DNA of 29,301 nucleotides from Steroidobacteraceae bacterium (GCA_035761885.1 DASTQG010000405.1:1-29301); one strand, 5' to 3'. Shown: positions 10,198 to 17,198, numbered from the stretch's first letter. Notes: generated from the letters alone by a model not told the origin. Program-made: numbers and translations.

Positions 10198-11205
10198 TCA
10201 GGCTGCCCTTCCACTGGGTGCCTGCGGAACCCCGGACGCGCCCGCCATGCGGGCGACCAGGCGGGCAAGCTCGTCCCATGGGTCGCCGGGCGCACGGCCC
10301 TTGATGGTGCGATCCACCAGCGCGGCTTCGGCAACCAGGTCCGCGATCTGGCCCGCCTTGAGCCGGCGCACCGCGTCGACAAGGCCCGCCGGGGGTCGTT
10401 GCCAGACCGGCACCGCCTGCAGGCCCCGACTCGAATTCCAGACCGCGCGGATACCCGAGGCGAGCGCCCACAGGATCAACGTCGGCTCCTCGCCTTCAGT
10501 CTGCAAGCCGTCGAGGATGCGCAGTGCGCGCGCCGCGTCGCCGCGCAGCGCCGCATCCTGCAGTTTGAACACGTCGTAGCGCGCGCTCTTCGCCACGGCA
10601 GTCTCGACCGTCGCAAGATCCACGTTGCCGCCGCCGAGCAGCAGCGCGAGCTTGTCGATCTCCTGTTGCGCGGCCAGCAGGTTTCCCTCCACGCGCTCGG
10701 CGAGAAATTCGGCCACGCCCGGCGAGGGTTTCAGACCCTGGCGCTGCATGCGCGCGGTGATCCACGCGGGCAGACGTCCCAGCTCGATCGACCACACCGG
10801 CACCCAGACGCCCGAGCGCTCGAAAGCCTTCACCCACGCACTGTTCTGCGCGGTGCGATCGAGCTGAGATGCGATGACGAGCAGCAGCTGGTCCGGTGCG
10901 GGACGTTCGAGGAGCTCCTGCAGCACTTCTGCGCCGTCGCCCGGCTTGCCGGTCGGCAGCTTCACCTCGAGGATGCGTCGCTCGGCGAACAGCGAGAGCG
11001 AGGCGCTCTCCGCGCGCAGCGAGTTCCAGTCGAAACCACGCTCGCCGAAGAACACCTGGCGGTCGGAGAAACCGGCCTGCCGCGCAGCGGCGCGGACCGC
11101 GTCCGCGGCTTCGGCCACGAGGAGCGGTTCGTCCCCGGACACGAGGTAGGCGTGAGAGAGCTGGCGCGCGAGATGAGCGGCGAGCGAATCGGAACCGAGC
11201 TTCAC
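10198..11205 (-). CDS. holA: DNA polymerase III subunit delta, 335 aa
   Basis: GTG start at 11205 (MKLGSDSL). AYLVSGDEPLL, SLSLFAERR, ERVEGNLLAAQQEIDKLALL and LVDRTIKG; lies upstream of nadD. Confidence 0.95.
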   Translation of the reverse strand: MKLGSDSLAAHLARQLSHAYLVSGDEPLLVAEAADAVRAAARQAGFSDRQVFFGERGFDWNSLRAESASLSLFAERRILEVKLPTGKPGDGAEVLQELLERPAPDQLLLVIASQLDRTAQNSAWVKAFERSGVWVPVWSIELGRLPAWITARMQRQGLKPSPGVAEFLAERVEGNLLAAQQEIDKLALLLGGGNVDLATVETAVAKSARYDVFKLQDAALRGDAARALRILDGLQTEGEEPTLILWALASGIRAVWNSSRGLQAVPVWQRPPAGLVDAVRRLKAGQIADLVAEAALVDRTIKGRAPGDPWDELARLVARMAGASGVPQAPSGRAA

Positions 11206-11993
11206 GGCGCAAGAGTACGCGAGGCCGCAGGCGATTGCATCCCGCGCCCGCTCGCAAGGTGCACGAACAGGCCGAGAACCGCCATGACCCACACGATGAG
11301 GCTGCTCGAGGGCAGGTCCGTGAGGAGCGAGAGCAGAAGTCCCACCGCGTAGCTGGCCACTGCGAGCGCATAGCCCACGACGAGCTGGCGCGACTTCTGG
11401 TAGCGATAGGTTGCCACCGCCGGCACGATCAGCGTGGTGAACACGAGATACACGCCGACCATCTGCACCGCCACCGTGACGACGAGTGCGAACAGCACGT
11501 AGAAGCCGATGCGCCCGATGCGCTCGCGGACAGTGAACCACACGGCGATGAACACGGCGGTCAGAATGGCGGCGTGCCAGAGCTGGGTTGCGGAAACCCA
11601 CAGGATCTGGCCGGCCAGCAGCTCCTTGAGATCCTCGCCCCCGTGCGGATCGTTCGCCAGGATCAGGATCTGTGCGGTGGATGCGAGCACGAAGAGGATG
11701 CCGATCAGCGCCTCCTGCGCTTCCGGCCGCTTGCGCTCGGTCCAGGTGAGCAGCAACGCGCCCAGCAGTGCCGCAACGACCGCCGCGATCTGCGTGCTCC
11801 AGCCGTTCTCACCCATGCCGAAGGTGTGAGCCGCGATCACGCCGAGCCCCGCCACCTGCGCGATCGCAAGATCGATGAACACGATGCCGCGCGCCAGCAC
11901 CTGCTGGCCCAGCGGCACGTGCGAGACCAGGACCAGGAGGCCTGCGATCATCGCCGGCCCGATGATGCCGAGGTTGTCGATGAGTGTGCTCAT
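11202..11993 (-). CDS. Metal (Zn/Mn-type) ABC transporter permease, ZnuB/ABC-3 family
   Basis: Polytopic membrane protein with GIVFIDLAIAQVA, QEALIG, DPHGGE and GQILWV. ATGA overlap with the binding-protein gene and GTGA overlap with holA. Confidence 0.88.
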   Translation of the reverse strand: MSTLIDNLGIIGPAMIAGLLVLVSHVPLGQQVLARGIVFIDLAIAQVAGLGVIAAHTFGMGENGWSTQIAAVVAALLGALLLTWTERKRPEAQEALIGILFVLASTAQILILANDPHGGEDLKELLAGQILWVSATQLWHAAILTAVFIAVWFTVRERIGRIGFYVLFALVVTVAVQMVGVYLVFTTLIVPAVATYRYQKSRQLVVGYALAVASYAVGLLLSLLTDLPSSSLIVWVMAVLGLFVHLASGRGMQSPAASRTLAP

Positions 11994-12889
11994 TGCGGCA
12001 CCTGCAATCGCTTCAGCGTGTCGTCGAACAGGCCATACAGGTCCTTCGCCCCGGGAGTGCCGCCCACGGTGTAGGGCAGCAGCACGACCGGGGCACCGGT
12101 GCGTCCGGACAGCCAGTTCACCGCCTTCGAATCGTTGTATGCGTTCCTGAGGATCATGCGCGGCGGATCGGACTCGAGCTTCGCCACCAGCGAGGCGAGA
12201 TGACCCGCGCTCGGCGGCACCCCGGGCTTGGGCTCGATCGCCGCGATCTCCCGCAGGCCGAGCCAGTGCGTGAGGTAGGCCTGGTCGCGATGGATCACCA
12301 CCACGCCGACGCCTTTCAATGCCTGCGCCTGTGGCTCCCAGCGGCGCATCGCCTCGCTCCAGCGCGCCTGGAATTCCTTGCCACGCTCGGCGTAATACGC
12401 GGCGTTCGCACCGTCGATCTGCGCCAGTCGCTTCGCCAACGCGTCGGCCACCGTGGCGATGTTGCGCGGGTCGAGGTGGATGTGCGGGTTACCGAGCGGA
12501 TGCACGTCGCCCATCGCGCGATCGACGCTGGTCGGCACTTCGAGCAGGCGCACCTGCTGCGTCGCCTCGAAGTAGCCCGGCTGGCCGGGCCGCACGCGTG
12601 CGTTGCCCGATTCCTGCAGCAGCACCGGCAGCCAGCCGATCTCGAGCTGCGCCCCGGTCGCGACCACGAGTTGCGCGTTGCGCGCGCGCGCGACGAGGCT
12701 CGGCTTGGCCTCGACGCGATGCGCGTCCTGGAATGCCGTGGTGGCGGCGTACACATCGACCCTGTCCCCGCCGAGCTCGCTCGTGAGCGACGCCCACTCG
12801 GGAGTCGTCGCGAGCACCCGCACCGCTGCCTGTGCGGGCAACGAGAAGACGAGCAGCAGAGCACAGAGTCCCCTGAAGAGAGCTGTCAT
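11990..12889 (-). CDS. Metal ABC transporter substrate-binding protein, ZnuA/cluster A-I family
   Basis: Signal peptide, DAHRVEAKPS, GDVHPLGNPHIHLDP, VIHRDQAYL and EPKPGVPPSAGHL. AGGAG RBS. Confidence 0.92.
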   Translation of the reverse strand: MTALFRGLCALLLVFSLPAQAAVRVLATTPEWASLTSELGGDRVDVYAATTAFQDAHRVEAKPSLVARARNAQLVVATGAQLEIGWLPVLLQESGNARVRPGQPGYFEATQQVRLLEVPTSVDRAMGDVHPLGNPHIHLDPRNIATVADALAKRLAQIDGANAAYYAERGKEFQARWSEAMRRWEPQAQALKGVGVVVIHRDQAYLTHWLGLREIAAIEPKPGVPPSAGHLASLVAKLESDPPRMILRNAYNDSKAVNWLSGRTGAPVVLLPYTVGGTPGAKDLYGLFDDTLKRLQVPQ

Positions 12890-12898
12890 GGCGTGCTC

Positions 12899-14296
12899 CT
12901 AGAACTTGTGGGCGCCGTGCGCGCCGAGGCTGTAGAGATACTGGAGCTGGAACTGGCGGTCCTGCTCCTGGTCGCGCGATTCGTCCCACGCGAACTGCGC
13001 GCGCAGGCGCGAGAACTCGCTCGGATTCCAGTCGACCATCAGCGTGAGGCGACTCGGCGAAGCGGCAAGCAGCGCGGGCAACGCCTGCGGCGGCAGTTCG
13101 CCCGAGTCCACCAGGCCGATGCGCGGATTGCCGGAATCGAGCGCGTCGTAGCGCGCGCCCAGGCGCCAGCGCGGACGGAATTGATAGACGCTCTGCAGGT
13201 ACCAGCCGTTCTGGCGGCTGCTGAAGTCTCCGTTCAACGCCGCGCCATCCACGTCGAATGCCAGCGTTCCATCCTCTTCGCGGCGCAGGTATTCGCCCTG
13301 CACTTTCAGGTTGCGCTGCGTGGGATTGCCTTGCGGCGACCACTTGAGCACGAAGTCGCCGGCCCACGTCTTCGAGGTACCCGTGAATGCGTTCACGACG
13401 GGCAGGCCGTCGGCATCCACATCGTCCCACGCCCGCTCCTGCGCGCGCACGTCGAGGTACGACACGCCAGCGCGCCAGCTTGCGGAGTCGCCGATGTCGC
13501 TGCCCACGTGCGCGAACGCCGCGGCGCCGTTGAGCCCGTTCGCCTCGCGACGCGTGCCGGGGAAGGCATCGCCGTTGCCGCTCTCCGCGCCGATCTCGAC
13601 GAACAGGTCGGTGGGCGCGATCCATTTCACCTGCACGCCGTTCTGCGCGAGCTGGCCGCCGTAGAACGCCTGGTAGGCGAGCGGCTGGTCGGTGAAATCC
13701 CATGCGTGCGCATGCACCTCGTTGAGGTAACCGATGCCCGAGAAGAAGCGTCCCATTTTGGCCGTGAAGCCTTCCGGGAGCGCGATGGTGCGCACGAAGG
13801 CCTCTTCCACTTCGATCTCGTCCTCAGGCGACAGAGCCGCGGTGAGGCTGCCGGCGAAGTACGGATCGATGTTCGCCGAGAGCGTGATCTCGGACTCGCC
13901 GAGATTGAAACTGCGCTCGCCCGGGCCGATTTCCCCGCCGGTCGGGATGAAGCCGGCGATGGCGAACGTGGCCGGATCCTGTGACGTGTGCGCGTAGTTG
14001 CCCGCGAGGATCACGGACATCGCGGGATTGAACGCGGTGGCGCCGCTGCTCGTCAATGCGGTGGCCGCGGGTGCGGCGGCGGGCATGGGCTCGCTCGGTG
14101 CGATCGCCTCCGCCGCGGACAACTGCGTTTCGAGCTGCGCAATGCGCTCTTCGAGCGTCTGAATGCGGGCTGTGTAATCGGACTTCAGCGCCTGCAACTC
14201 GGCGCGCAGGGTGGAAAGGTCGTCAGCCGCCGCCGGGCGAGCGACGGCGCAGCCGGCCAGCAGGAGCACGGCACCCAGGGAATGCGAAACGTTCAC
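12899..14296 (-). CDS. Outer-membrane beta-barrel receptor/porin of the type found with ZnuA-like proteins, 465 aa
   Basis: GAGGAGG RBS before GTG 14296. Signal peptide, N-terminal coiled coil, His motif YLNEVHAHAWDF and C-terminal LGAHGAHKF ending in Phe. Confidence 0.85.
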   Translation of the reverse strand: MNVSHSLGAVLLLAGCAVARPAAADDLSTLRAELQALKSDYTARIQTLEERIAQLETQLSAAEAIAPSEPMPAAAPAATALTSSGATAFNPAMSVILAGNYAHTSQDPATFAIAGFIPTGGEIGPGERSFNLGESEITLSANIDPYFAGSLTAALSPEDEIEVEEAFVRTIALPEGFTAKMGRFFSGIGYLNEVHAHAWDFTDQPLAYQAFYGGQLAQNGVQVKWIAPTDLFVEIGAESGNGDAFPGTRREANGLNGAAAFAHVGSDIGDSASWRAGVSYLDVRAQERAWDDVDADGLPVVNAFTGTSKTWAGDFVLKWSPQGNPTQRNLKVQGEYLRREEDGTLAFDVDGAALNGDFSSRQNGWYLQSVYQFRPRWRLGARYDALDSGNPRIGLVDSGELPPQALPALLAASPSRLTLMVDWNPSEFSRLRAQFAWDESRDQEQDRQFQLQYLYSLGAHGAHKF

Positions 14297-14315
14297 GAGT
14301 CTTCCTCCTCGACGG

Positions 14316-14350
14316 AAAAAATGCGCGAGTGCGCGCCCGAGGCGCTGCAC
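14316..14350 (-). terminator. Possible attenuator hairpin plus U6 tract between the DUF2946 leader and the receptor gene
   Basis: Minus strand GTGC(a)GCGCC-tcg-GGCGC-GCAC (14350-14329), then 7 nt, then TTTTTT (14321-14316). The gap before the U tract is atypical. Confidence 0.3.
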
Positions 14351-14364
14351 CCGGATTCATCGGT

Positions 14365-14682
14365 CTAGAGGAGGACGGGAGGTGCGCGGGAACGAAACGC
14401 GAGGAGTGGACGATGCGAGTCCGCGCCGCTTGCTTGCGCGCCCAGGGAGCGCAGCTCGCCGCCGAGTGCGACGACGGGCGCGCAGGCGCTCGAGCCGACC
14501 GCGGACAGGAGCGGTGCGAACGAAGGACAGAGATTGCAGGCCTGCGTGTGCAGGCTGGAGAGATCGACGGGCTGGTTTCCGGTCGCATGCGCATAGGCAT
14601 GCGCCTGTGCGCCAAATTGACCGAGCAGCAGTGCAGCCGCCAGCAGGAGGCGAAACGCCAACTTGCGACTCGACCGGTGCAT
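14365..14682 (-). CDS. DUF2946/CruR-like leader protein with CxxC and C-terminal RAPP motif, 105 aa
   Basis: Signal-like N-terminus, HAYAH, HTQACNLC and C-terminal FRSRAPPVLL. Lies directly upstream of an outer-membrane receptor gene. Confidence 0.8.
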   Translation of the reverse strand: MHRSSRKLAFRLLLAAALLLGQFGAQAHAYAHATGNQPVDLSSLHTQACNLCPSFAPLLSAVGSSACAPVVALGGELRSLGAQASGADSHRPLLAFRSRAPPVLL

Positions 14683-14695
14683 GAACGCGAGTCTA

Positions 14696-14716
14696 CCATT
14701 TGCCCATGGCAATTGG
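14696..14716. promoter_or_regulatory. Imperfect palindrome in the 38-bp divergent intergenic region; candidate operator
   Basis: CCATTTGCC-cat-GGCAATTGG pairs at 8/9. It does not match a box I recognise. Confidence 0.25.
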
Positions 14717-14720
14717 ATCG

Positions 14721-15434
14721 ATGAACGGTGGCGAGGCGATCCGGCTGCGCGGTGTGGAGTACGCCTGGCATCAGGGACCACCGGTCCTGCGCATTCGGCA
14801 GTTCGACGTCGCACGCGGGGAGCGCGTGTTCCTTTACGGGCCGAGCGGCAGCGGCAAGAGCACGCTCCTCGGCCTGATCGGCGGGGTACTGCAACCCGCA
14901 CAGGGCAGCATCGAGGTGCTCGGCCAGCGGCTCGAAACGATGCGCGCTTGGGAGCGCGACCGTTTCCGGGCGCGGCACGTCGGGTTCGTCTTCCAGATGT
15001 TCAACCTCATTCCCTATCTTTCGGTGATCGACAACGTGCTGTTGTCCACGCGCTTCTCGCGCACGCGCCGCGAGCGCTCCGGCGGGGCCGAGGCGGCCGC
15101 ACAAGCACGACGCCTGCTGAGCGCACTCGGCATCGGTGCCGGGGAGCTCACCGCTCGCAAGGTCACGCAGTTGAGCATCGGACAACAACAGCGCGTGGCG
15201 GCGGCGCGAGCGTTGATCGGACGGCCCGACCTGCTGGTGGCCGATGAGCCCACTTCCGCGCTGGACCAGGATGCGCGCGCCTCGTTCCTCGACCTGCTGA
15301 TGCGTGAGTGCGCGGCCTCCGGCACGACGCTCCTGTTCGTGAGCCACGACGCAACGCTCGCCGCGCGCTTCGACCGGGGCGTTGCGCTCAGCGACATCAA
15401 CTCCGTACCCACCGCCACCACGGTGGCTGCGTGA
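14721..15434 (+). CDS. ABC transporter ATP-binding protein, LolD/MacB-type (ZrgB/PA4064-like), 237 aa
   Basis: Walker A GPSGSGKST, Q-loop FVFQMFNL, signature LSIGQQQ, Walker B LLVADEPT and H-loop VSHD. Confidence 0.93.
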   Translation: MNGGEAIRLRGVEYAWHQGPPVLRIRQFDVARGERVFLYGPSGSGKSTLLGLIGGVLQPAQGSIEVLGQRLETMRAWERDRFRARHVGFVFQMFNLIPYLSVIDNVLLSTRFSRTRRERSGGAEAAAQARRLLSALGIGAGELTARKVTQLSIGQQQRVAAARALIGRPDLLVADEPTSALDQDARASFLDLLMRECAASGTTLLFVSHDATLAARFDRGVALSDINSVPTATTVAA

Positions 15435-16669
15435 GCGCAGCGATCGCGGGGCTCGCGGCACGCAGTCTCTGGAACCGGCGCGGGACGGCACTGCTCACGG
15501 TAATCGCGATCGCCGTCAGCGTCACACTGCTGCTGGGCGTACAGAAGATGCGCAGTGCCGCTCGTGACAGCTTCGCCAACACGCTCTCGGGCACGGACCT
15601 GATCGTCGGCGCGCGCAGCGGGCCGGTGAACCTGCTGCTGTACTCGGTGTTTCGCATCGGCGATGCGACCGCGAACGTTTCCTGGCCCACCTACCAGCGC
15701 GTGGCCCGTCATCGCGACGTCGCCTGGACGATTCCGCTCTCGCTCGGTGATGCGCATCGCGGCTTTCGAGTGCTCGGCACGACGCGGGCCTACTTCGAGC
15801 ACTATCGCTATGCGCGAACCCATGCGCTCGAGTTCGCGCAGGGCGCCGCGTTCGCGGAGCTGCACGATGCCGTTCTCGGCGCGGAGGTTGCGCGCACGCT
15901 CGAGTATCGGCTCGGCGATGCGCTGGTCATCGGGCACGGCCTGGGCGAGGTCAGCTTCAGTGAGCACGACGATCAGCCGTTTCGTGTCGCCGGTATCCTC
16001 GCGCCCACCGGCACGCCCGTGGATCGCACGGTGCACGTGAGCCTGGAAGCGGTCACCGCGATCCACGACGCAGGCAGGCCCGCGGCGGACGAGGTCCGCG
16101 CGCGCGACCTCACGCCACCTGCAATCACTGCTTTCCTCGTCGGCATGAAGAGCAAGGACACGGTGCTGAAGATGCAGCGCGCCCTGAACGAGTATCCGGG
16201 CGAGGCGTTGCTCGCGATCATCCCGGGAACGGCGCTGCAGCAGCTGTGGAGCGTCGTCGGCATCGCCGATCGCGCGCTCATGGTCGTCGCCGCCTTCGTG
16301 GTGCTCGCCGGGCTCCTCGGCATGCTCACCGCGATTCTCACCAGCCTCAACGAGCGGCGGCGCGAGATGGCGATCCTGAGATCGGTGGGTGCGCATCCGC
16401 TGCACGTGTTCGCGTTGCTGCTCTCGGAGGCCGGTTTGCTCGCACTCGTGGGCGTGCTCGCCGGCATCGGGATCGCTTACGCGCTGCTCGCGATCGCACA
16501 GCCGTTGCTGATCGAGCACTACGGGCTGTTCGTGACGATCGGCGGCCTGAGCGGCTACGATCTCGGCTTGCTGGCCGCGGTGGTGGTCGCCGCCGTGCTC
16601 ATGGGGCTGATTCCCGCGTGGCGCGCCTATCGCAACTCCCTCGCCGACGGATTGTCGATCAGGGTCTGA
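15431..16669 (+). CDS. ABC permease, FtsX/MacB-like (ZrgC/PA4065-like), 412 aa
   Basis: GTGA overlap with the ATPase gene. DLIVGARSG, LLLYSVFRIG, PLSLGDAHRGFRVLGT, GTPVDRTVHVSL and SLNERRREMAILRSVGA. Confidence 0.9.
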   Translation: MSAAIAGLAARSLWNRRGTALLTVIAIAVSVTLLLGVQKMRSAARDSFANTLSGTDLIVGARSGPVNLLLYSVFRIGDATANVSWPTYQRVARHRDVAWTIPLSLGDAHRGFRVLGTTRAYFEHYRYARTHALEFAQGAAFAELHDAVLGAEVARTLEYRLGDALVIGHGLGEVSFSEHDDQPFRVAGILAPTGTPVDRTVHVSLEAVTAIHDAGRPAADEVRARDLTPPAITAFLVGMKSKDTVLKMQRALNEYPGEALLAIIPGTALQQLWSVVGIADRALMVVAAFVVLAGLLGMLTAILTSLNERRREMAILRSVGAHPLHVFALLLSEAGLLALVGVLAGIGIAYALLAIAQPLLIEHYGLFVTIGGLSGYDLGLLAAVVVAAVLMGLIPAWRAYRNSLADGLSIRV

Positions 16670-16685
16670 AGATCGAGGATTGCCG

Positions 16686-17198
16686 ATGAACCGCTGGCTG
16701 TGCGCCGTTTTCATTACCTTTGCGTTGGTCGGGCTCGCGCCACAGGGCGCTGGCGCGGAGGTGCGGCAGATCGACTGGGAAGAACTGCTGCCCGAGAACG
16801 AGCGCGGTCAATTCAGCTCCGGCGCGCCCGCGCCCGTGCACGACTACCTGTCGGGCGAGAGCGGGCCTGCGGCCGCGCAACAGGTGTCGGTGGGCGTGAA
16901 TGCGCAGCTCGACGGACGCACGGTGAGGATTCCGGGGTTCATCGTTCCGCTCGACCTCGACGAGGACAGCAAGGTCATCGAGTTCTTCCTCGTGCCGTAT
17001 TTCGGCGCGTGCATCCACGTGCCGCCGCCGCCCGCGAACCAGATCGTGTATGTCACGCTCGAGAAAGGGGTCGCGCTGGATTCGATGTACGAGGCGTACT
17101 GGATCACGGGCGAGCTCAGCGTGAAGGACAAGCAGACCCGCCTCGGCGCCGCGGCGTACACACTCGCCGGCCGCCAGATCGAGGTCTACAAGTACTGA
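16686..17198 (+). CDS. DUF3299 domain protein (ZrgD-like), 170 aa
   Basis: IDWEELLP, VRIPGFIVPL and EFFLVPYFGACIHVPPPPANQIVYV. Confidence 0.9.
   Translation: MNRWLCAVFITFALVGLAPQGAGAEVRQIDWEELLPENERGQFSSGAPAPVHDYLSGESGPAAAQQVSVGVNAQLDGRTVRIPGFIVPLDLDEDSKVIEFFLVPYFGACIHVPPPPANQIVYVTLEKGVALDSMYEAYWITGELSVKDKQTRLGAAAYTLAGRQIEVYKY

Follow-up and report, generated by a model that had tools for sequence, protein, structure and literature searches.

The question raised by this locus is whether a short open reading frame (ORF) with metal-ligand motifs and a terminal RSRAPP, lying just ahead of a metal-uptake operon, could act as a leader peptide that senses metal while it is still being translated. 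The window, meaning the whole stretch of DNA analysed, comprises 29,301 nucleotides from a Steroidobacteraceae bacterium (GCA_035761885.1, DASTQG010000405.1:1-29301). [quoted passage not shown] Confidence is high for its identity as a regulatory RAPP leader. It is moderate for masking of the ribosome-binding site (RBS) as the output, which is predicted by RNA folding, and likewise moderate for zinc as the signal, which is argued from the genes downstream.

An earlier note on this DNA had described a 105-residue ORF with HAYAH, HTQACNLC and terminal RSRAPP, placed 68 nt ahead of the gene of a barrel protein, and this description proved exact on re-checking. The parts of the leader are as follows.

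14365..14682, minus strand: leader ORF of 105 residues plus stop (ATG at 14682, stop codon at 14365-14367), a candidate arrest peptide resembling CruR and CutF.
14596..14682, minus strand: N-terminus resembling a signal peptide or membrane anchor, residues 1-29, recognised by eye and conserved in the alignment.
14587..14601, minus strand: HAYAH, residues 28-32, with H28, Y30 and H32 invariant.
14527..14538, minus strand: CNLC, within HTQACNLC (residues 45-52), with C49 and C52 invariant.
14377..14397, minus strand: FRSRAPP, invariant, with the RAPP arrest motif at 14377-14388.
14363..14376, minus strand: tail codons VLL, the stop codon and two further nucleotides, forming the 5′ arm of the predicted SD-masking helix in the pair list of the minimum free energy (MFE) fold.
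14297..14364, minus strand: spacer of 68 nt with an inner GC-rich hairpin at 14329-14350.

The N-terminal 29 residues run from a basic stretch through a hydrophobic segment to AQA, an arrangement seen by eye and kept in an alignment of 50 sequences, while RSRAPP occupies residues 97-102 and is followed by VLL and the stop codon. A word-indexed search returned 86 homologues of the leader at E ≤ 0.01, and a full profile search gave 1508 cluster representatives at E ≤ 0.001, with 242 at 1e-10. A genome scan located 58 genomic loci with the leader, all of them in metagenome-assembled genomes (MAGs) of Steroidobacteraceae or of related or unclassified Gammaproteobacteria. Invariant positions in the 50-sequence alignment are H28, Y30, H32, C49, C52, A56-P57-L58, F96 and S98-R99-A100-P101-P102, and the linkers between these motifs are variable and of low complexity, with a fixed length. 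C49 and C52 do not vary across 56 of the loci either. Of these 56 loci, 54 have a distance of 46 residues between CxxC and RAPP, the other two having 47 and 43, and RAPP is followed by three residues in 45 of the 56, by six in ten and by seven in one. All four synonymous codons are in use across the loci at Ala100, Pro101 and Pro102, and the conserved His, Tyr and Cys residues are likewise encoded by either of their two codons; with such synonymous variety at invariant residues, it is therefore the leader peptide that is under selection. The ORF is a genuine conserved peptide-coding gene and not a chance reading frame.

The closest known parallel is CruR (Bp2923) of Bordetella pertussis, the DUF2946 prototype, which is likewise a small, exported-looking ORF heading a metal-uptake operon. 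Proteins of the CruR family possess a CxxC, a RAPP motif three residues from the end and an export signal, stand first in copper-related operons, and have a CxxC-RAPP spacing of 45 that is kept within one or two residues (PMC9426467). The present leader has the CxxC, a RAPP about three residues from its end and a matching spacing (46 against the 45 of CruR), and it is the first gene of a metal-homeostasis operon in both of the cassette types described below. With its export-like N-terminus it displays the hallmarks of CruR, every sequence-level element of the earlier note's reading is borne out, and the account given there of RAPP-mediated arrest and of the regulation exerted by CruR is accurate when set against the published work (PMC9426467, PMC10951233, PMC12992588). 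The toeprint of CruR also matches the RAPP arrest state (PMC12992588; PMC10951233). The expected polarity, with uptake switched on when metal is scarce, is alike in the two systems.

There are also differences between the two. The present leader adds an invariant H-x-Y-x-H and scores below the cut-off of PF11162, and it is followed by either porin, ZnuA-like and ABC-3 genes or by a TonB receptor and a ZIP transporter, where CruR is followed by a TonB receptor and PepSY_TM. CruR has a spacer of 162 nt, whereas here it is 68 nt long and its SD pairs with the leader tail in the predicted fold. CruR further differs in its Rho-dependent output, its sensing of copper and the dispensability of its signal peptide.

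The DUF2946 label itself did not survive formal scrutiny, the leader scoring 14.5 bits with PF11162 against a gathering cut-off of 23.7 bits (E = 0.062, with residues 24-102 aligned to profile positions 35-117). Matches at E < 0.1 were obtained for 18 of 50 relatives, the best at 3.6e-4 and all of them sub-threshold. When the leader profile was compared by hhalign with 28 true DUF2946 proteins, the probability was 52.6%, limited to the C-terminal 27 columns, and it was 7.8% with just three canonical DUF2946 proteins. The family is accordingly filed as a divergent branch outside the Pfam model that would work like CruR and CutF, and not as a formal DUF2946 member. It would be missed by Pfam-based surveys because its scores fall below the DUF2946 cut-off.

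A signal-like N-terminus and conserved metal ligands would also suit an exported or membrane-anchored metal-binding chaperone serving the importer, in which case neither RAPP nor the RNA pairing described below would have a regulatory role. This explanation is considered very improbable. The conservation of the leader is confined to short motifs set between the variable, low-complexity linkers of fixed length, and RAPP is invariant and stands at a fixed distance from both the CxxC and the stop codon; moreover, RAPP/RGPP sequences are reported to arrest translation readily (PMC12992588) and the tail co-varies with the SD of the following gene. All of these features argue against a chaperone.

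The genes downstream of the leader bear on the question of which metal would be sensed.

12899..14296, minus strand: outer-membrane protein of 465 residues with a GTG start at 14296, predicted to consist of a coiled coil and a porin-type beta-barrel.
11990..12889, minus strand: ZnuA-family periplasmic metal-binding protein (PF01297, E = 7e-41).
11202..11993, minus strand: divergent ABC-3 permease, ZnuB/AztB-like (PF00950, E = 2e-22).

The 465-residue protein matched no family in Pfam. Its AF2 model, of moderate confidence (pLDDT 64), consists of a helix at residues 24-63 followed by a barrel, and the top Foldseek matches of the model were OmpT, OprP, OprO, OprB and DcaP (E-values from 1e-8 to 7e-6, TM scores of 0.36-0.58). 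A porin-type barrel after a coiled-coil helix is the arrangement of trimeric DcaP/OprP-like porins. Invariant histidines are found in this protein within NEVHAHAWDF (H195, H197), at H263 and in the C-terminal GAHGAHKF (H460, H463), and these could possibly line a metal-selective channel. The ZnuA-like protein has the three canonical His ligands (H57, H136, H200), which together with D283 are invariant in 24 orthologues. The ABC-3 gene overlaps the ZnuA-like gene by 4 nt and is followed by holA; an ATPase gene is missing behind it both in the window and at the other loci inspected. The divergent ABC-3 gene was the only ABC-3 gene found in the genome of the window and in four sampled relatives, while one further sampled relative has a canonical ABC-3 gene alone and the remaining seven yielded none.

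This four-gene leader-porin-ZnuA-ABC3 cassette is present at 35 of the 58 loci, including that of the window, and in 26 loci the leader heads a gene for a TonB-dependent receptor. In 14 loci of the TonB type the receptor is followed on the same strand by a protein of about 400 residues and a ZIP-family transporter, and at one additional locus the ZIP gene comes directly after the receptor. The protein of about 400 residues between receptor and ZIP transporter is conserved and has no Pfam match (L015 8694-10630, L019 8756-10691 and 12 others). Both types of cassette occur together in a single MAG (loci L006 and L046). As to the specificity of the receptors, searches with their sequences against the PDB were uninformative and NCBIfam gave only generic TonB families, with no likeness to receptors of known specificity.

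Both cassettes are, as their sequences suggest, complete import routes built on zinc-family inner-membrane transporters. Zinc-type metals are preferred over copper as the cargo because both operon types carry importers of zinc families, ZnuA/ABC-3 in one and ZIP in the other. The non-TonB barrel and the ZnuA/ZnuB-like system that the earlier note had placed behind the leader are thus borne out, the former as a porin-like protein by the AF2 model and Foldseek and the latter by a PF01297 protein with three invariant histidines and an ABC-3 permease; the case for the proposed zinc-type wiring gains from the other setting of this leader subfamily, in which a TonB receptor is followed by ZIP. The three-His site of the ZnuA type is also compatible with Mn, Co, Ni or Cu and does not exclude them.

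The leader could in principle sense copper, like CruR and CutF, or another non-zinc metal imported by the downstream cassette. All characterised DUF2946-type leaders respond to copper (PMC9426467, PMC9973294), CxxC is a classic Cu(I) site, and CutF-like proteins with different sets of ligands have been proposed for Ni/Co (PMC9973294). Such a reading is nevertheless judged rather unlikely: the importers in both operon types belong to zinc families, no genes for PCuAC, CopC, YcnI, PepSY or multicopper oxidase, nor any other copper-specific gene, were identified at the loci whose neighbouring ORFs were inspected, and the CxxC is joined by the invariant H-x3-H, a ligand pair peculiar to the present leader subfamily, which completes a Cys2His2 set of the kind that is usual for Zn(II).

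The second strand of evidence concerns the RNA that joins the end of the leader to the start of the porin gene, in which two further features are placed.

14303..14313, minus strand: SD of the porin gene, GAGGAGG at 14304-14310, forming the 3′ arm of the predicted masking helix.
14316..14336, minus strand: terminator-like hairpin GCGCG-CACU-CGCGC with a U run, not conserved in other loci.

The leader-spacer RNA (14280-14400) is predicted to fold with an MFE of -51.2 kcal/mol (z = -3.3 relative to shuffled sequences). In this fold an 8-bp helix is formed between UCCUCCUC (14368-14375, codons 103-105) and GAGGAGGA (14303-14310, the porin SD). The helix is lengthened by the stop codon, and higher up the codons of Pro102 and Arg99/Ala100 pair around the start codon. 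The spacer measures 53-79 nt in the 49 loci with a cleanly assigned start. The same layout is predicted for 49 of the 53 loci that were folded: a central GC hairpin is enclosed by pairing of the SD region with the end of the leader, from the Pro codons to a little beyond the stop codon. It extends to the class with a six-codon tail, in which the partner of the SD is formed by the codons for Ala-Pro-Pro.

When 40 tail-plus-spacer sequences were simply aligned with MAFFT and folded by RNAalifold, 0 consensus pairs were obtained, because the 3′ arm was out of register; for a subgroup of 15 sequences there were 15 pairs, the CUCCUC:GAGGAG helix among them, with little covariation in the invariant SD core. 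In view of these limits, alignment-free duplex energies were used, in which each tail was paired with the SD of its own locus or with those of others. Tail:SD duplexes within a locus have a mean of -18.7 kcal/mol compared to -14.3 kcal/mol across loci, a value matched by 0 of 10,000 permutations, and in the same test on eight representatives, one for each sequence cluster, the count was 36 of 20,000. Different tails (UCGAAUCAGU, CUCCUGUGA, ACUCCUCGCUAGG) face matching sequence beside the SD, and complementarity of tail and SD is kept across the family through differing sequences.

The effect of a stalled ribosome on this structure was modelled by blocking its footprint, which in the RNA of the window raises the energy from -51.2 to -31.8 kcal/mol (a cost of 19 kcal/mol) and leaves the SD with only a weak, G-U-rich partner, namely the U run of 14316-14336. 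With positions from -12 to +15 around the P site blocked, mean SD accessibility rises from 0.25 to 0.35 (Wilcoxon p = 7e-6), so that the opening of the SD predicted by the thermodynamic model is modest. When 30 more upstream nucleotides were included in the folds, the partners of the SD core lay wholly within the footprint in 33 of 53 loci, and in 14 loci part or more of the core paired 20-33 nt behind the P site. An RBS-shielding stem-loop within reach of the stalled ribosome, a feature of CutF-type systems, is thus present here in silico.

A stalled ribosome could also act on transcription, as in CruR, by blocking the loading of Rho or termination in the spacer, with the helix being secondary. 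CruR is the closest characterised relative in motif layout and uses Rho-dependent termination (PMC9426467), and the three-codon tail is common to both. On the other hand, a structured, GC-rich spacer of 53-79 nt would be a poor loading site for Rho when compared to the 162 nt of CruR, and the locus-specific complementarity of tail and SD has no role in a purely Rho-based model. A chiefly transcriptional output is for these reasons regarded as unlikely here, and it should be mentioned that Rho-based and RBS-masking mechanisms are compatible and could operate together.

The hairpin and U run at 14316-14336 also raise the option of a classical attenuator, with an intrinsic terminator set by the position of the ribosome on the leader. 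A terminator scan does give one site here, a 5-bp GC stem followed by AUUUUUU, but a single site is about what shuffled sequences yield (0.7 expected) and most homologous spacers either lack the U run or have it in the wrong place. A 151-nt sequence record (14283-14433) from soil also reads through the site, a weak point as the run it comes from may be DNA. Attenuation is the least probable of the explanations considered for this window and was rejected as a general mechanism since the U run is not conserved.

The evidence on the RNA returns the argument to RBS masking, for which the following course of events is proposed. The ribosome would arrest at RAPP with Pro101 (14380-14382) in the P site and Pro102 in the A site, a geometry assigned by analogy with the RAPP arrest state (PMC10951233) and the CruR toeprint (PMC12992588). 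The mRNA channel of the stalled ribosome would then cover the next ~15 nt, comprising the Pro102 codon, VLL and the beginning of the stop codon. With this footprint on the anti-SD arm (14363-14382), the porin SD would be free and the operon translated, the ZnuA-like and ABC-3 genes being co-translated through close spacing or overlap. The fixed tail of three codons would be accounted for, because the anti-SD arm would sit under the channel of the stalled ribosome. When metal is plentiful it would bind the His2/Cys2 ligands, and folding, or folding together with pulling by Sec, may free the arrest; the released ribosome would read three codons and terminate, allowing the strong helix to return and the operon to be switched off. 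At the stall the ligands would already be outside the tunnel, at 49-74 residues from the peptidyl-transferase centre (49-52 residues for C49/C52 and ~69-73 for H28/H32), and a metal-dependent fold of the 25-residue segment that contains them could provide the force for release. The expected polarity is that of CruR, because the operon is an importer: lack of metal would mean stalling and expression, and its presence release and shut-off. The metal itself would most likely be Zn(II) or a similar divalent ion.

Zinc-dependent folding of a small Cys2His2 domain is able to free an arrest peptide, as demonstrated with an artificial fusion of ADR1a to SecM (PMC4571824). A more specific and tentative form of the proposal is therefore that the leader is a natural zinc-finger-like force sensor, in which H-x3-H...C-x2-C would fold on Zn(II) outside the tunnel and pull the chain out of arrest, giving translational control of zinc uptake in these soil Gammaproteobacteria; this is seen as possible, with the odds somewhat against it. 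Under such a reading control would be exerted in place of Zur or besides it, and one sensor would serve both the porin/ZnuA/ABC-3 and the TonB/ZIP routes.

The RBS-masking output proposed for the leader has a suggested precedent in cutF-cutO of the Rhodobacter capsulatus cutFOG operon (10.1101/2025.02.05.636593, PMC9973294). A Cys-based metal site is common to CutF and the present leader, and the Sec signal of CutF has a putative counterpart in the signal-like N-terminus here (PMC9973294, 10.1101/2025.02.05.636593). It differs in having CxxxC and an EF-P-dependent PPP stall motif where the present leader has CxxC and RAPP, and in the position of the anti-SD, which here is within the leader's own last codons. 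CutF also controls a detoxifying multicopper oxidase and stalls when bound to copper, the opposite of the metal-free stalling expected ahead of an importer. With SecM, ApdA and ApdP (PMC10951233, PMC7897499) the leader shares a C-terminal RAP(P/G) module, a putative N-terminal localisation signal and, as proposed, control of downstream translation, which in SecM is achieved by unmasking of an SD, as proposed here. Those peptides monitor the activity of Sec or YidC and have no metal ligands, whereas the His2/Cys2 set and the import operon of the present leader point to metal.

The ZnuA-family protein with three His ligands and the ABC-3 permease are features shared with ZnuABC and AztABC, which are under the control of Zur. 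The present cassette differs from these in its porin gene, in its missing ATPase gene, a trait of all 35 loci, and in the lack of an E. coli-type Zur box in the window, with control apparently exerted by the leader peptide instead. A search of the whole window for the E. coli-type Zur core with up to three mismatches gave no match; a lineage-specific box could differ from the consensus used. The suggestion in the earlier note that the leader may function in place of a Zur box would rest on this negative result. The region upstream of the leader contains the following.

14690..14698, minus strand: extended -10-like element, TGGTAGACT, 7 nt ahead of the leader ATG.
14700-17198, plus strand: divergent operon of an ABC ATPase (LolD/YbbA-like), an FtsX/MacB-type permease and a DUF3299 protein.

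No SD precedes the ATG of the leader, and a consensus promoter scan of this region found nothing. Among the 26 homologous loci whose leader begins with ATG, 13 have a TAnnnT hexamer 6-9 nt upstream of that codon, in ten cases at exactly 6 nt, while at any other offset from 0 to 60 it was present in at most three of the 26. The -10-like element close to the ATG and the missing SD suggest that the leader transcript is leaderless or nearly so. The divergent operon begins ~20-40 nt from the leader ATG, and the two promoters must therefore overlap coding sequence. Its ATPase, at 14706, goes with the FtsX/MacB-type permease. No inverted repeats of 10 nt or more were found in the divergent region. 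A short palindrome, TTGCC-CAT-GGCAA (14700-14712), may be an operator; it is located immediately upstream of the leader's -10-like element and overlaps the beginning of the divergent ATPase gene. The divergent operon adjoins the leader in none of the 58 homologous loci and is a feature of the window's genome only, while a relative of the same genus has a 20-residue remnant of the DUF3299 C-terminus beside its leader (L074 10947-11006).

Metal-sensing arrest leaders have so far been characterised for copper only (CruR, CutF). In the searchable literature no link was found between RAPP or DUF2946-type leaders and zinc-uptake genes. The neighbours named in papers on CruR, CutF and RAPP/RGPP are TonB receptors, PepSY, YcnI, PCuAC, RND efflux and HupE/UreJ, and the searchable part of that literature has no mention of ZnuA, ABC-3 or ZIP as leader neighbours; the term ZnuA is absent from PMC9426467, PMC9973294 and PMC12992588, and zinc from PMC9973294 and PMC12992588. 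A search for DUF2946 in connection with zinc led only to transcriptome tables of Caulobacter (PMC4176598). If the proposed mechanism is true, zinc import in a widespread soil lineage would be controlled during translation by a nascent peptide, regulation of this kind would extend to a second metal, and the system would be a compact one of 105 codons and 68 nt.

The stretch of the window itself is present in soil metagenomes from nine studies. Two soil runs labelled as metatranscriptomic, though probably of DNA, contain records of 151 nt that match the window exactly at 14283-14433 and at 14440-14590; they are given no weight as evidence of expression. The former record covers the end of the leader, the entire spacer and 14 nt at the start of the porin gene. 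The same genome also encodes a second, different DUF2946-like leader on contig 81 (L059 1360-1878). This 172-codon frame has His-rich stretches, scores 17.9 bits with PF11162, which is likewise under the cut-off, and ends in QPRGPPSLS 69 nt before a gene for a TonB-dependent receptor.
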